64,000 nucleotides of DNA from a phage. Shown one piece after another: positions 16,029 to 60,528 of the stretch. The translations under genes and the position numbers were made by a program. The notes below the pieces were generated by a model. The model saw nothing but the letters and a program-made list of their open reading frames with translations, made no database searches and had not been told where the DNA came from. The DNA lies in the sequence record PZ452583.1; one strand, written 5' to 3'. Positions within the stretch are counted from its first letter, which is position 1, and each line of letters opens with the position of its first letter.

Positions 16029-16050
16029 CGTTTTGTGAAAAAAATTTTTG

Positions 16051-16078
16051 AAATAAAAAGGGGACCTCTAGGGTCCCC
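16051..16078 (-). terminator. Rho-independent terminator downstream of gene 32
   Basis: GGGGACC/GGUCCCC stem plus U-run on minus-strand RNA, right after gene 32 stop. Confidence 0.7.
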
Positions 16079-17108: not shown

Positions 17109-17762
17109 TTAATACTTACAAGATTTCACAGTTTCAATAAAAACTTTTTTAGCTTCCTGTGAATCAATATTTAAAATTTTTCTATAAGCCTTTAATTTTA
17201 TAGAATAATTATTCCAGACTAAATTATCAGTCTGTTCATCATGTTTATCAATTATATTTAAAAACGAATCAAGCAAGATAAACGTCTCAAACGAAATTAT
17301 ATTTGATTGAAGTAGTTTAAAAATATAACTTGATTGAACTTTTGGATTATACTCAAAAATTTCTTTAAAAGCAGAAACTTCAACTTTTTTACTAAAATAA
17401 TAAATGTTGCGAATATCTTCTTCAAACTTAAATTTAATTTGCTTTAAGCGTCCGATATATTCACGATAAAACACAAGTGCATCAGCGTCAGAGATGTCAC
17501 CAATCCAAGCATCTTGGTTAGCAACCAAATTACTTATAAAGATTAAAGCAAGTTCCTTTAATTTATATTTTTCTGATAACTTCTGGAAAAAATACTTATC
17601 CCTTCGCTTTTGATAAGCGGCATCAGACACCCGCATGCACCAATTATACTTAATAACATCATACTTTCCATTCATATGTTGTTTTATCATTAAGTATAAT
17701 TTATAAACTGATTTACCATCAATATATCTTTCACCACCAGCAGGCATGCGGAGTTTAATCAT
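17109..17762 (-). CDS. 59: gp59 helicase loader
   Basis: 217 aa, equals T4 gp59; position between 33 and 32. Confidence 0.9.
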   Translation of the reverse strand: MIKLRMPAGGERYIDGKSVYKLYLMIKQHMNGKYDVIKYNWCMRVSDAAYQKRRDKYFFQKLSEKYKLKELALIFISNLVANQDAWIGDISDADALVFYREYIGRLKQIKFKFEEDIRNIYYFSKKVEVSAFKEIFEYNPKVQSSYIFKLLQSNIISFETFILLDSFLNIIDKHDEQTDNLVWNNYSIKLKAYRKILNIDSQEAKKVFIETVKSCKY

Positions 17763-33099: not shown

Positions 33100-33140
33100 T
33101 TTCTAATCTCCGTAATTCTGTATCAGTAGTTGATAGTTGT

Positions 33141-33170
33141 ATAGTACCACAGTATGCTTTGGTTGTAAAC
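33141..33170 (-). promoter_or_regulatory. T4-type early promoter (GTTTAC / TACTAT) for motA with conserved leader
   Basis: GTTTAC, 18 nt, TACTAT; leader CAACTATCAACTACTGATA shared with other loci. Confidence 0.6.
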
Positions 33171-33190: not shown

Positions 33191-33220
33191 AAATAAAAAG
33201 GGAGAGCCGAGGCTCTCCCT
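33191..33220 (-). terminator. Rho-independent terminator
   Basis: GGGAGAGCC-GAG-GGCUCUCCC hairpin plus U-run on minus-strand RNA. Confidence 0.7.
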
Positions 33221-33224
33221 AAAA

Positions 33225-33374
33225 TTACTGCATGACTGTGATAACTGTCATGATAACACGTTGAATTCCGAACGCAAGAAGACCTCCTGCTACGGCTGGA
33301 ACAACGCCTAAACCCGCCAGTAAAATGCTACCAGATACTAATGCAGCGCTTGTAATACCTATGAATGGACTCAT
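33225..33374 (-). CDS. Small hydrophobic membrane protein (49 aa)
   Basis: ATG overlaps gene 52 stop; product MSPFIGITSALLVSGSILLAGLGVVPAVAGGLLAFG...; not in track. Confidence 0.5.
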   Translation of the reverse strand: MSPFIGITSAALVSGSILLAGLGVVPAVAGGLLAFGIQRVIMTVITVMQ

Positions 33375-43776: not shown

Positions 43777-44202
43777 TTATTCCTTAAAATGAGCTTTCAG
43801 CATCTGATACAAGGACCATGCCTGTTCATTATTTTCAATAGTAACTTTCATGACTGGGAATTCTGTGAAATCTTCTATTTGTTCTTGCTCTTTCTCTTCC
43901 TGCTCTTGCTCTTCAACTGCCTGATATGGATTTTCCACTTCATCAAAGAACCCAGCTTCGTTAGTAGAAAGCCAAATAAAGTTTTCGTCAAGGATATCAC
44001 CATGTGTTGCATATCCAACTGTGCCAGTAGATGTCACAATTTTAGTAGGACGACCAAGATGGTCAACATCTAAAATTTTAAAAGGATGCATACCTAAACG
44101 GCGTGCATAGATTCCGTTATCAGTATGATCTTTAATAAAATTTTCTTGAGCTTGTTTATTTTTAAATTGATACCATTTATTAACTTCAAATCTAATAGCC
44201 AT
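43777..44202 (-). CDS. Hypothetical acidic protein (141 aa; possibly goF/comC-alpha by size and position)
   Basis: ORF track; length equals T4 goF but sequence identity not verified. Confidence 0.55.
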
Positions 44203-44417
44203 TAATAAATTTCCTTCCAGTAAGTTGTGCCATCTTCAGTAATTTCACGAAATACACCGTAAATTGGTTGTTTATCACCAACCTTTTCATACACATAAAC
44301 CGAAGTCAAGTGAGTAAACTTAACGGTATGTTCCTTTTGAACCACTACCAAATCTGGATCAAATAATACATCTTCAAATTCGTCATTAGTGCAATTCTGA
44401 ACAATTTTGCGTTTCAT
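44202..44417 (-). CDS. cef: Cef-like protein (modifier of suppressor tRNAs) by size and position
   Basis: 71 aa, equals T4 Cef; assignment positional. Confidence 0.55.
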
Positions 44418-44430
44418 TACAATTTCCTCA

Positions 44431-44700
44431 TTAATTGAACAGTGGAGCGATACGTTTCAGAAGAGTAGCAGCACCTTTAGCGAATTTTACATCATGAAAA
44501 ACAGTTTCTTCTTCTGTAACAACACGAGCTTTAATGTTTTCACAATCCCAATTTTTGCGAACAATCTTCAAAAGCTGCAGTAAATCTTTACATTCAGCAA
44601 TATCGATAACACATCCACGAGAATCTTCCATTATCGCACGATAACCGTAAGCCATACCATAATCATTGAAAGATTGCTCGATGATAATTAAATTTTCCAT
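44431..44700 (-). CDS. Hypothetical protein
   Basis: Track ORF to 44757; ATG MENLIIIEQ has GGAGAATAAA SD. Confidence 0.55.
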   Translation of the reverse strand: MENLIIIEQSFNDYGMAYGYRAIMEDSRGCVIDIAECKDLLQLLKIVRKNWDCENIKARVVTEEETVFHDVKFAKGAATLLKRIAPLFN

Positions 44701-44722
44701 TTTATTCTCCAAGTTTTTCTGT

Positions 44723-44765
44723 ATCAGTAGTTGATATTGATATAGTACCATAATCAACTACTGAT
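44723..44765. repeat. 13-bp perfect inverted repeat ATCAGTAGTTGAT / ATCAACTACTGAT with 17-nt spacer
   Basis: Read directly; spacer contains a -10-like TGGTACTATA; adjacent A11 homopolymer at ~44781..44791. Confidence 0.7.
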
Positions 44766-44809
44766 GTATATAGTTTTATGAAAAAAAAAAATTTAAACTT
44801 TATGCAAAT

Positions 44810-45229
44810 TTATGCTAAAGCTGCTTCGCACCATTTTTTAATTTGGAATTCAGGAACTACCATGAACTGGCCTGCAAAAACAATATTGTAGAGCTTGACA
44901 CCATCTTCTACCCAACGGTCCGAAATAAAACCAGCGACTTGATTCGTTGTCCATGGAGTTCCATCTGTTGCCGCCGCAATTGTGAATTTATGGTCTTTTA
45001 CAACTAAAACTGAAGAACAAAGTTTCCATTTAAATGCGCGTTCTTCTGGCTCAATGAACTGACTTGAGACATAACCAATGTTACCATCAGCGTCACGAAC
45101 TTTAACCTCGTTACGACCAAAAACTGGATCACTTACAGAAAGAACTTCAACCAGCTTTCCTGCAACTTTAGAACGAGAAGCAACGGATACATATACGTAA
45201 TCACCAGTAGAGAGATTTACAATATTCAT
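44810..45229 (-). CDS. Hypothetical protein, paralog family member A (motB-region)
   Basis: 139 aa; shares N- and C-terminal motifs with 45239..45712. Confidence 0.6.
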   Translation of the reverse strand: MNIVNLSTGDYVYVSVASRSKVAGKLVEVLSVSDPVFGRNEVKVRDADGNIGYVSSQFIEPEERAFKWKLCSSVLVVKDHKFTIAAATDGTPWTTNQVAGFISDRWVEDGVKLYNIVFAGQFMVVPEFQIKKWCEAALA

Positions 45230-46772: not shown

Positions 46773-46802
46773 ATAATACCACAACTGACCGAGGAAGTAA
46801 AC
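46773..46802 (-). promoter_or_regulatory. T4-type early promoter (GTTTAC / TATTAT)
   Basis: GTTTAC, 18 nt, TG-n-TATTAT on minus strand. Confidence 0.6.
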
Positions 46803-59100: not shown

Positions 59101-60528
59101 CTAAAATTTTAATTCATTTGCCAAAGCATCTAACTGAGCTCGAGCTGATTCGTTTCTTTGATAGCGATTCTGTTCAGCCTGAATCTGTTGTGAACCTGCT
59201 ACTTCACTCACTTCGGTTGGAGTAGAATCTTGTTCAATTTCTACCCATTTTTGATTTCCTTTTTGAACACCCATCAAAAACTTATTCCATTTATTCTTAT
59301 CGCCATATCGTGATTTGATTTGCTTAATGAGTTGTTGTTCAGCAGCTGCTAGCTCCTCGGTTTCAATGACCGCAAGCATAAAATCAGCTGTTGCTGGAAG
59401 ACCGGCAGATTCTGCAATATCGCTCATGTTAACATCAGAAGAATCCCAAGCTTGTTTACCAACCTGTGCTGCAGTCCAAAGAACAGTTTCGGTTTCAACA
59501 GCCAGAGCACGCAATTCCTCTGCAATAGCTTTAACAGTTGTGTAACTATTTTCTGAATAAACTCGGATGCGACAAGATTTACAAATACCTAGATAGTCGA
59601 CAATAATGATTGTTGGAACAAAATTCTTCTTGAGCTTCAATTCGTTTAAAAGTGATCGAAATGTATTAGCGTCTGCTCCACCAGTAGGATACTGTTTAAC
59701 GATTAAACGACCGAGAGTAGATTTCTCACGCCATTTTTCCATTTTTCCTTTATACTCAGCGTAAGAAATATGCCCATCATCAATATCATCAAGAGAAACA
59801 TCAAGCATATTAGCATCAATACGCTTAGCACAGACTTCTTCTGCCATTTCCATGGAAATGTAAAGAACATTATGTCCGAGCTGCAAATAATCTGCTGCCA
59901 ATGAACACAATCCTAATGACTTACCAACGTTAACTCCAGCCATTAAAACGTTCAGTGTTCCAGTCTCAGCTCCGCCTTTAGTAATTTTGTTTAGAATTCT
60001 GAGTTTAAATGGAACTTTACGAGCTTTATTCATATAAGATAGCCAGCGTGCTTCGTAGTCATCCATCCAATCATGACCAACGTAGCTATCAAATGAAATT
60101 GATAATGCTTGGCGCATGATGTCAGGAATAGCACCAACATCCGGCATTTTCTTATTTCGTTTTTCCGGAGGAAGCTCAGCATTAGTTTGAATTTCGATTA
60201 TTTTAGACGTAGCATTAAACATCGCCCTTTGCTGAACATATTTTTCTGTTTCTTTTATTAACCAGCTGTGGTCTTCCGGAGAATCAGCCAGTTTTGAAAT
60301 AAGTGTTTTTACACCAGAATATTCTGTTTCAGTAAATGAACTATTTTCTAATGCAACATTTAACGCATTAATAGATGGAACGCTATGGTACTCATTAACA
60401 TGAGATTTAATTAATTTGAATGTATTTTTAGCTGGACCACTTTCAAAATATTCTGAATCCATATATGGCCAAACTTTTGAAAAATAAGCTTGATCAAATA
60501 TGAGATGAGAAAGAATAATTTCTACCAC
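59101..60528 (-). CDS. 41: gp41 replicative DNA helicase
   Basis: 475 aa, equals T4 gp41; Walker A GVNVGKS. Confidence 0.95.
   Translation of the reverse strand: MVEIILSHLIFDQAYFSKVWPYMDSEYFESGPAKNTFKLIKSHVNEYHSVPSINALNVALENSSFTETEYSGVKTLISKLADSPEDHSWLIKETEKYVQQRAMFNATSKIIEIQTNAELPPEKRNKKMPDVGAIPDIMRQALSISFDSYVGHDWMDDYEARWLSYMNKARKVPFKLRILNKITKGGAETGTLNVLMAGVNVGKSLGLCSLAADYLQLGHNVLYISMEMAEEVCAKRIDANMLDVSLDDIDDGHISYAEYKGKMEKWREKSTLGRLIVKQYPTGGADANTFRSLLNELKLKKNFVPTIIIVDYLGICKSCRIRVYSENSYTTVKAIAEELRALAVETETVLWTAAQVGKQAWDSSDVNMSDIAESAGLPATADFMLAVIETEELAAAEQQLIKQIKSRYGDKNKWNKFLMGVQKGNQKWVEIEQDSTPTEVSEVAGSQQIQAEQNRYQRNESARAQLDALANELKF

Follow-up and report, generated by a model that had tools for sequence, protein, structure and literature searches.

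The palindrome at 44723-44765 of the window is part of an ordinary, conserved early promoter of the orf89-cef-goF unit, and together with that promoter it probably constitutes a conserved Tequatrovirus early-promoter cassette of the PeSL (promoter-early stem-loop) type, in which the palindrome would act via read-through RNA. The window is the whole stretch of phage DNA that was analysed (sequence record PZ452583.1, 64,000 nucleotides). The element is of a known kind and is conserved from T4 itself. The A-run beside it is a non-coding AT tract, and the locus matters little for the genome. It does provide an example of how a T4 early promoter can lose its -35 sequence and still resemble a full member of its family by its UP, TGn and -10 elements.

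Genomic context of the locus

The window is from a Tequatrovirus, with 99.1% identity to GiZh and 98.5% identity to RB3 in this region. The locus is intergenic, between a MotB paralogue and the orf89-cef-goF genes, and every gene in this part of the window is encoded by the minus strand. The 170-bp cef-motB intergenic region of T4 contains the module too and is orthologous to this locus. The features of the locus are as follows.

44810..45229, minus strand: upstream gene, MotB paralogue of 139 aa (open reading frame list; phrog_1671 MotB-like, E = 1.2e-50; RB3 and GiZh annotation)
44773..44797, minus strand: AT-rich UP-like tract TTTAAA-T11-CATAAAAC, homopolymer included, in register with the AAAATTTTTTCACAAAAC of sister promoters
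44765..44770, minus strand: degenerate -35 hexamer TATACA, placed by in-register alignment with 19 GTTTAC promoters
44753..44765, minus strand: 5' arm, ATCAGTAGTTGAT on the coding strand, within the promoter spacer and upstream of the predicted +1
44741..44750, minus strand: extended -10 TGGTACTATA at the top of the hairpin, the same as the -10 at 33149, 36787 and 16007
44723..44735, minus strand: 3' arm ATCAACTACTGAT, the shared leader motif, with the predicted +1 at its first base
44723..44765, minus strand: hairpin of 43 nt from RNA folding (13 bp, 2x2 internal loop, 5 bp, 3-nt loop)
44700..44710, minus strand: Shine-Dalgarno (SD) region GGAGAAUAAAA, an exact optimal 11-nt RegB/S1 site that begins 13 nt past the hairpin
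44431..44700, minus strand: downstream gene of the promoter, an 89-aa ORF of unassigned function (open reading frame list; phrog_3720; RB3 annotation)
44202-44417, minus strand: cef, after the 89-aa ORF (phrog_1354; RB3 annotation)
43777-44202, minus strand: goF, after cef (phrog_622/goF; RB3 annotation)

The MotB paralogue ends with a stop codon at 44812-44810, and read-through transcripts of this gene would cross the promoter and palindrome. Gene content differs between phages on both flanks. The upstream flank holds motB in T4 and T2 and an additional motB paralogue in the window and RB3, and the downstream 89-aa ORF is intact in some phages and present as an 11-codon remnant in T4 and T6.

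The palindrome and the homopolymer

A preliminary description of this DNA had reported a perfect 13-bp inverted repeat around a 17-nt spacer, a -10-like element inside the spacer and an A-run of about 11, and all three observations were borne out. The repeat reads ATCAGTAGTTGAT at 44723-44735 of the plus strand and its reverse complement ATCAACTACTGAT at 44753-44765, with 17 nt between, and it continues inward to give 20-nt arms that are complementary at 17 of 20 positions around a 3-nt centre. On the minus strand, the coding strand here, the spacer holds TGGTACTATA (44750..44741), and alignment with the promoter family identifies this as a genuine early-promoter -10. The homopolymer is exactly A11 (44781-44791, plus strand), or T11 on the coding strand, upstream of the promoter. 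Read along the coding strand, the order is TTTAAA-T11-CATAAAAC-T-ATATAC-ATCAGTAGTTGAT-TA-TGGTACTATA-TCAAT, followed by ATCAACTACTGAT-ACAGAAAAACTT-GGAGAATAAA-ATG.

The exact arm 13-mer occurs four times in the window, as the two arms and at 33122 and 36760. Both of the latter copies are directly downstream of a TGGTACTATA -10, in agreement with the earlier proposal that one arm is a shared leader motif. Of 200 dinucleotide shuffles of the window, 21 contained a perfect 13-bp inverted repeat with a loop of up to 40 nt, and the window itself has another at 17642; taken by themselves, the perfect arms are therefore no more than mildly unusual. The structure as a whole is clearly non-random.

Promoter architecture

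Transcription is predicted to start at about 44735 (+/-2), the 7th nucleotide after TACTAT, which would give a leader of 35 nt. The extended -10 comprises TG at 44750-44749 and the hexamer TACTAT at 44747-44742, and the SD region comprises GGAG at 44710-44707 ahead of the ATG of the 89-aa ORF at 44700-44698. The palindrome arm had been thought to replace the -35. We found that the arm instead fills the spacer, and that the -35 slot is occupied by (A)TATACA at 17-bp spacing. In T4 numbering this slot is ATATAC at 44771-44766 (-36 to -31), which matches GTTTAC at four of six positions; taken as TATACA, the hexamer lies 17 bp from TACTAT and its final base is the opening base of the 5' arm.

The GTTTAC found at -36 to -31 of T4 early promoters is therefore absent, and the other elements of these promoters are present: an extended -10 (TGn with TAnnnT) and an A/T-rich UP region that is A-rich at -40 to -44. 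CATAAAAC and the T-run are in register with the early-promoter UP region. UP elements of T4 early promoters have been described (Hinton 2010, PMC2988021; Nolan 2006, PMC1524935), and the promoter here fits the published view of T4 early promoters as being of the UP/-35/TGn/-10 kind and of TGn/-10 promoters as needing no contact at the -35 (Hinton 2010, PMC2988021; Nolan 2006, PMC1524935). In a leave-one-out weight matrix this promoter scored 26.5 bits and ranked 10th of 20, and just 18 sites in the window score as high. The -35 contributed -0.6 bits here compared with 10.8 at every other family promoter, and this weakness was offset in the family matrix by a top-scoring TGn/-10 and downstream part, the TGn and -10 (TGGTACTAT) alone scoring 12.3 bits. 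Against the PST/T4 consensus TTTACW-N17-TAYWAT, the -10 matched at six of six positions and the -35 (TATACA) at five of six, with exact spacing. The plain E. coli consensus was matched at 8 of 12 positions, and a simple promoter scan did not return this site. The match of the UP region to the sister promoters was 11.9 bits for the modal A4T6 allele and 3.5 bits for the A3T11 of the window, a rough hint, from a matrix dominated by few sister sequences, that expansion of the T-run weakens the distal UP match.

Other phage promoter classes were considered and rejected. The sequence has no MotA box (TGCTT) near -30, as a middle promoter would have, and it does not contain the TATAAATA of late promoters.

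Predicted RNA structure

The predicted hairpin has an energy of -19.4 kcal/mol in the sense RNA and -16.4 kcal/mol in the antisense RNA, and by stability it ranks in the top nine of the 50-nt structures on the window's minus strand. A 111-nt sense RNA spanning it folded at -24.4 kcal/mol, compared with -11.8 +/- 2.7 kcal/mol for shuffled sequences (z = -4.7, none of 200 as good). The stem is A/U-rich, with G-C at 5 of its 18 pairs, and begins 45 nt past the upstream stop codon. Because the predicted +1 coincides with the start of the 3' arm, the hairpin should be able to form only in read-through RNA; RNA initiated at the promoter is predicted to be unstructured (-2.5 kcal/mol, z = 0.45). An Rfam scan of 44400-45000 gave only a chance miRNA match (E = 0.97; 18 bits, where the gathering score is 89), and therefore no known RNA family is involved.

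Conservation and natural variants

We searched for the 60-nt block that runs from CATAAAAC through the 3' arm and found it in 499 phage records, in 466 of them without change, including T4, T2, T6, RB3 and RB68. Every T4-like contig recovered from IMG/VR and metagenomes also carried the identical block. The same search with a 60-mer from cef returned 122 records, 35 of them identical. The preliminary description had named an identical arrangement in relatives as evidence against its reading, and by that standard the conservation speaks against a local oddity. Such conservation would, however, be expected of any promoter, and the promoter cassette at 46802, which is without this palindrome, is equally conserved.

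The homopolymer departs from this conservation and varies in length: T5 in T4, T6 in most phages including T2 and T6, T7 in RB3, T9 in S1P5QW, T11 in this window, T12 in GiZh, Jbel and one contig, and T13 in one contig. The modal run is 6, and the long alleles occur in two different upstream flank contexts. This range from T5 to T13 agrees with the suggestion that the run is prone to slippage; being non-coding, it has no frame to shift, and we rejected a frameshift-prone coding homopolymer on the grounds that the run is intergenic.

In SholemSchwarzbard, vB_SsoM_113, SA21RB and sutha, A is replaced by G at position 4 of the 5' arm with the 3' arm unchanged, giving a G.U pair in the sense RNA. 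These four isolates differ in source (the USA, South Africa and Thailand, with none stated for the fourth). ERS-1 has the same change plus T to C at the pairing partner, giving G-C, and has its flank signature in common with two of the four. The sole other change inside the hairpin was in IME340, where the apical loop and -10 change from TACTAT to TATTAT. In EC121 the -35 slot is GTATAC, a change towards the consensus. Predicted energies of the sense hairpin were -19.4 kcal/mol for the consensus, -18.7 for G.U and -20.9 for G-C, and the antisense hairpin of the G.U allele was -11.7 compared with -16.4 kcal/mol for the consensus, the G.U allele thus keeping the sense hairpin but not its antisense counterpart. 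These alleles provide a natural series with A-U, G.U and G-C in the stem and T5 to T13 in the UP tract.

None of the 18 pairs is lost in the six distinct natural variants, and one of the pairs occurs as AU, GU and GC. A covariation shuffle control on these six sequences was not significant (162 of 500). Covariation of this stem pair is suggestive only, because the double change is found in one record (ERS-1), flagged UNVERIFIED_ORG, and templated quasipalindrome mutation predicts the same outcome. Loop-anchored scans of IMG/VR and metagenomes for arm variants gave no extra covariation, and also returned unrelated phages that share the -10 string only.

The 5' arm is absent from the sister promoters and from a cassette in the Mosigvirus vB_VIPECOMC06, which is the closest copy without it. 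In this copy the -10, leader and SD are the same, but the -35 is the canonical GTTTAC, the spacer is unrelated and there is no hairpin (-0.8 kcal/mol). We rejected it as an orthologous ancestor, as it sits before a different, unrelated gene; it is a paralogous cassette that illustrates the arm-less state only. Since this copy has GTTTAC, an unrelated spacer and no hairpin, sequence comparison indicates that the 5' arm is derived in the Tequatrovirus cassette and was gained together with the weakened -35. The pattern is consistent with a single inversion-duplication event, and the earlier suggestion that the second arm arose in this way is made plausible by the Mosigvirus copy.

Related promoters in the window

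Approximately 20 T4-type early promoters (GTTTAC-N18-TAnnnT) are present on the minus strand of the window. Three sisters, at 33149, 36787 and 16007, have more than 40 nt in common with this locus and carry the upstream AAAATTTTTTCACAAAAC tract and the extended -10 TGGTACTATA; the leader ATCAACTACTGATAC is common to two of them. Directly upstream of the cassette at 33149 there is also a G/C-rich hairpin with a U-tract. Matches of 72-84%, over stretches of about 50-105 nt, were also found in the T4 msp1, nrdC.10 and ndd promoters, and homologous modules in partial T4 records were annotated as early promoters by their depositors, for example 'early promoter 54.4'.

The preliminary description had taken this for the only early-promoter locus with the palindrome arm in place of GTTTAC, but the locus is not unique. 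Nine of 18 early promoters in the window carry a hairpin that straddles the -10, formed by pairing of the -35-to-+1 segment with the leader (minus strand, at 59101, 52003, 46802, 45785, 44771, 36292, 15031, 6599 and 3293 by a segment-shuffle test). Their z values range from -2.6 to -5.5, with 0-1 of 100 shuffles as good, and the -10 is in or near the loop. At the present locus this pairing beat all 100 segment shuffles (z = -5.2). At four of the nine (52003, 46802, 36292 and 6599) the SD lies within the 3' arm, and the SD-AUG region has a predicted accessibility of 0.47-0.84 when the RNA starts at the promoter but only 0.11-0.42 in read-through RNA. Natural variants of two neighbouring hairpins are in bulges or loops or are compatible with pairing in the sense RNA, with one disruptive exception.

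Proposed role of the hairpin

We propose that host sigma-70 RNA polymerase would use this site as a UP/TGn/-10 promoter with little dependence on the -35. The palindrome would result from the presence, in the spacer, of the first 13 transcribed bases in inverted form. RNA initiated at the promoter would be unstructured because the 5' arm is not transcribed, and read-through RNA from the upstream motB genes would contain both arms and fold into a stable 43-nt hairpin between the cistrons. This hairpin might attenuate upstream transcription, as proposed for PeSL stem-loops, or it might shield the 3' end of motB mRNA after RegB cleavage at the GGAG that lies 13 nt downstream, a cut that would leave the upstream message ending in the hairpin and a short tail. 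The folding model suggests that the hairpin may have this protective role, and the presence of a hairpin predicted to form in read-through RNA only, beside a perfect RegB site, suggests a role in mRNA processing. An attenuator role is doubtful for an A/U-rich stem without a U-tract. Attenuation or 3' protection is favoured over a neutral by-product maintained by mutation. The homopolymer would be part of the upstream AT tract, with a length that drifts by slippage and that could modulate promoter strength only.

More tentatively, the stem may be kept by selection at the RNA level as one case of a general design of T4-type early regions, a possibility we hold to be worth stating but not likely. 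If this were true, about half of the early promoters would lie inside hairpins formed in read-through RNA only, and each such gene would give rise to two mRNA isoforms that meet different fates: a promoter-proximal one, open to ribosomes and RegB, and a read-through one, which would be folded. Folding would mask the SD at four promoters or, as here, separate the cistrons by a protective or attenuating hairpin and a RegB site.

Alternative explanations

The palindrome could be a functionless mutational by-product, the product of an intrastrand template switch during replication by which an ordinary promoter received the complement of the leader in its spacer. Quasipalindrome-templated mutation of this kind was first described in T4 rII. 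We regard a palindrome without function as possible though improbable, and think the same of the accompanying view that the palindrome has persisted through close kinship of the phages, constraint on the promoter and templated correction that keeps the arms matching. Several observations are in keeping with it. The closest arm-less copy differs at about 8 of 13 arm positions together, which suggests one replacement event; the arms are perfect and the inner part is imperfect; a perfect repeat of this length is not very rare by chance, as the shuffles above indicate; the compensatory change in ERS-1 is exactly what templated correction would give; the formal covariation control was not significant; and the promoter block at 46802 is as conserved without this palindrome. 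However, half of the early promoters have non-homologous hairpins at the same position relative to the -10, beyond what shuffles give, and independent accidents on this scale are hard to credit. The G.U intermediate in four differently sourced isolates is also the one compatible with the sense RNA, variation in the neighbouring hairpins avoids breaking pairs, and the allele is close to fixation in the genus even though the event that created the arm weakened the -35 as well.

A second alternative is translational masking, in which the U-run and the CA that follows it would pair with UGGAGAA where the hairpin has its base and hide the downstream ribosome binding site in read-through RNA, so that translation, or cleavage by RegB, would be confined to promoter-proximal transcripts, as with T4 e, soc, 49 and I-TevI. 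Both the MFE and the centroid structure of the 111-nt read-through RNA pair UUUUUCA with UGGAGAA. At the four promoters with the SD in the 3' arm, this region is predicted to be less accessible in read-through RNA, and there is precedent in the systems reviewed by Uzan and Miller (2010, PMC3014915). At the present locus, however, the SD-AUG region was equally open in the two RNAs, with predicted unpaired probabilities of 0.80 in read-through and 0.79 in promoter-initiated RNA (folded from the -35, with the U-run outside the construct). The helix between the U-run and the SD has 7 bp, two of them G.U, and closes large internal loops. The U-run varies in length from 5 to 13 without compensating change, and the same AT tract is present at sister promoters with differing SD context. 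We consider masking unlikely, both as a hidden ribosome binding site and as a restriction of translation and RegB cleavage to promoter-proximal transcripts.

The hairpin is very unlikely to be a Rho-independent terminator of the upstream motB genes. The SA21RB record does carry, over the hairpin, the automatic annotation 'rho-independent terminator; discovered using WebGeSTer', and the stem-loop is stable and lies 45 nt past the upstream stop codon. However, the tail is ACAGAAAAAC, with no U-tract on either strand, the combination of a G/C-rich stem and U-tract that marks an intrinsic terminator is absent, and a scan with a consensus terminator found nothing at the hairpin. A genuine combination of this type is, on the other hand, present just upstream of the sister cassette at 33149.

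Control at the DNA level, with the promoter switched by a cruciform or by a symmetric operator for a dimeric DNA-binding protein, either of them centred at the -10, would account for the perfect 13-bp symmetry around the -10, with arm centres 30 bp or about three helical turns apart, and for the recurrence of the leader 13-mer at two other promoters, but is hardly credible given that sister promoters have a single copy of the motif, that four isolates break the DNA symmetry on one arm in a way an RNA helix tolerates, and that the other hairpins straddling a -10 are unrelated in sequence, which excludes a common protein site. We know of no candidate sequence-specific regulator for this palindrome, and the DNA binding reported for MotB is not sequence-specific.

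Comparison with known systems

A literature search on the promoter and its motifs found no paper describing this particular palindrome or printing its motifs. The closest known class is the PeSL of RB49 and phi1, which consists of an intergenic AT-rich tract, a strong sigma-70-like early promoter, a stem-loop, and an SD and ATG (Arbiol 2010, PMC2839356). Five placements of the stem-loop were described, among them a position between the -35 and -10 and overlap with either of these boxes, and overlap with the -10 is among the commonest; the stem-loop was proposed to terminate or attenuate upstream transcription, and the cassettes to mediate gene shuffling (Arbiol 2010, PMC2839356). PeSLs were subsequently extended to T4 and PST, with the consensus TTTACW-N17-TAYWAT, an AT-rich region upstream and the SD and ATG at the 3' end (Comeau 2014, PMC4122927).

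On sequence and predicted structure, the present element has every structural feature of this class. Its AT-rich tract (44773-44797) is intergenic and within about 12 nt of the stop codon at 44812-44810, its promoter is TATACA-N17-TACTAT at 26.5 bits, its 43-nt hairpin of -19.4 kcal/mol is centred on the -10, and GGAG and ATG are at its 3' end. The sisters at 33149, 36787 and 16007 provide the repetition and the conservation over about 100 bp, and the differing gene content on both flanks provides the link to gene insertions, deletions and exchanges. The likeness to PeSLs thus extends to the composite layout, repetition in the genome, greater conservation than the neighbouring genes and adjoining gene gains and losses, and RB49 and phi1 also have a stem-loop that overlaps the -10. 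There are also differences. The stem here is A/U-rich, without poly-G or poly-C and without a U-tract, whereas the one RB49 PeSL stem for which terminator activity was shown is G/C-rich, and such activity can therefore not be assumed here. The -35 is degenerate, and the stem straddles the -10 and +1, whereas the figure legend for the PST/T4 PeSLs places stems just upstream of the promoter.

Canonical T4 early promoters share with this one the extended -10 TGGTACTAT, the A-rich -40 to -44, the T-rich tract, the spacing and the position before early genes. This promoter differs from them in having ATATAC for the otherwise invariant GTTTAC, a spacer that is an inverted copy of the leader, and a T-run of 11 compared with the modal 6.

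The T4 genes e, soc, 49 and I-TevI have inhibitory hairpins with an internal promoter (reviewed in Uzan and Miller 2010, PMC3014915). As at this locus, the promoter interrupts the hairpin, so that long transcripts fold and promoter-proximal ones do not. Those promoters are late and have the SD or AUG inside the helix, whereas the promoter here is early and its SD is 13 nt outside the helix and predicted to be open; sequestration of the SD or AUG was accordingly not found.

RegB/S1 sites follow the 11-nt single-stranded consensus GGAGRAYARAA, of which GGAGAAUAAAA is the optimal form (Durand 2006, PMC1702504). The SD region here matches this optimum at all 11 positions and is predicted to be unpaired in read-through RNA at a probability of 0.80, and it is one of four optimal sites on the minus strand of the window, with none on the plus strand. 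Like other RegB/S1 sites it is intergenic, predicted to be single-stranded and associated with an early gene; it differs in its adjacent upstream hairpin, which is not part of the described recognition site. Together with the other hairpin-bearing promoters of the window, this locus adds T-even examples of stem-loops that overlap the -10 to the known range of PeSLs.

Hairpins centred on the -10 element at other early promoters

Hairpins centred on the -10 element were identified at eight more early promoters on the minus strand of the window, with z values between -2.6 and -5.5 relative to shuffles of the 5' segment. Their -35 slots lie at the following positions:

59101, minus strand
52003, minus strand
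46802, minus strand
45785, minus strand
36292, minus strand
15031, minus strand
6599, minus strand
3293, minus strand

Only read-through RNA, transcribed from upstream genes across the promoter, can form these hairpins. At promoters 52003, 46802, 36292 and 6599 the Shine-Dalgarno sequence is located within the 3' arm of the hairpin, and is predicted to be less accessible in read-through than in promoter-initiated RNA.

The promoter-straddling hairpin of the main cassette, in phage SA21RB (OL960580.1, 6096-6146), has been labelled a rho-independent terminator by automated annotation, although a U-tract is absent after it. We also observed a second perfect 13-bp inverted repeat in the window, with its first arm at 17642 (plus-strand coordinate) and a loop of 34 nt. 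The optimal RegB/S1 site GGAGAATAAAA is present in four exact copies on the minus strand (44710, 36751, 14985 and 228), each of them forming the Shine-Dalgarno region of a minus-strand early gene, and is absent from the plus strand of the window.

Genes flanking the main cassette

On the coding strand, 10 nt are repeated in tandem (window 44796-44815, GCATAAATTT / GCATAAAGTT), and this repeat coincides exactly with the junction of the extra motB paralogue and the main cassette, the PeSL-type early promoter. The 3' end of T4 motB is GCATAA. The repeat resembles a scar left by an unequal exchange that duplicated motB in tandem.

On the other side of the cassette, the 89-aa phrog_3720 gene is intact in T2, RB3 and the window, and an 11-codon frameshifted remnant of it (MENSLKVLILF*) is found inside the 'cef-motB intergenic region' of T4 and T6:

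T4 (NC_000866), about 6557-6483, minus strand, phrog_3720 remnant
T6 (L005), counterpart of the T4 remnant

An internal deletion of about 200 bp appears to have joined ATGGAAAAT to TCGCTAAAGG, close to the 3' end of the gene.

A shared 17-mer in an unrelated phage group

The 17-mer TATGGTACTATATCAAT is also common to an unrelated phage group, represented by these IMG/VR and metagenome contigs:

L013, L015, L017-L019, L022, L023, L026, L063 and L089

There TTGTTTAAC/TTGTTTAGC comes before it and AAGAACTA...GAGG...ATG after it, and it is apparently a conserved strong promoter 5' of a gene starting MMDNIG.

Stem-loop placement in the sister cassettes

Upstream of two sister cassettes, early promoters sharing long identical stretches with the main cassette, a C run is followed by a T-rich tract (CCCTTTTTATTT):

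33199-33248, upstream of cassette 33149
about 16040-16065, upstream of cassette 16007

For cassette 33149 it forms the last part of a G/C-rich hairpin (GGGAGAGCCTCGGCTCTCCC) directly upstream of the AT tract, and at least two stem-loop placements therefore occur within one promoter sub-family. The 33149 arrangement is the classical PeSL layout, terminator then promoter.
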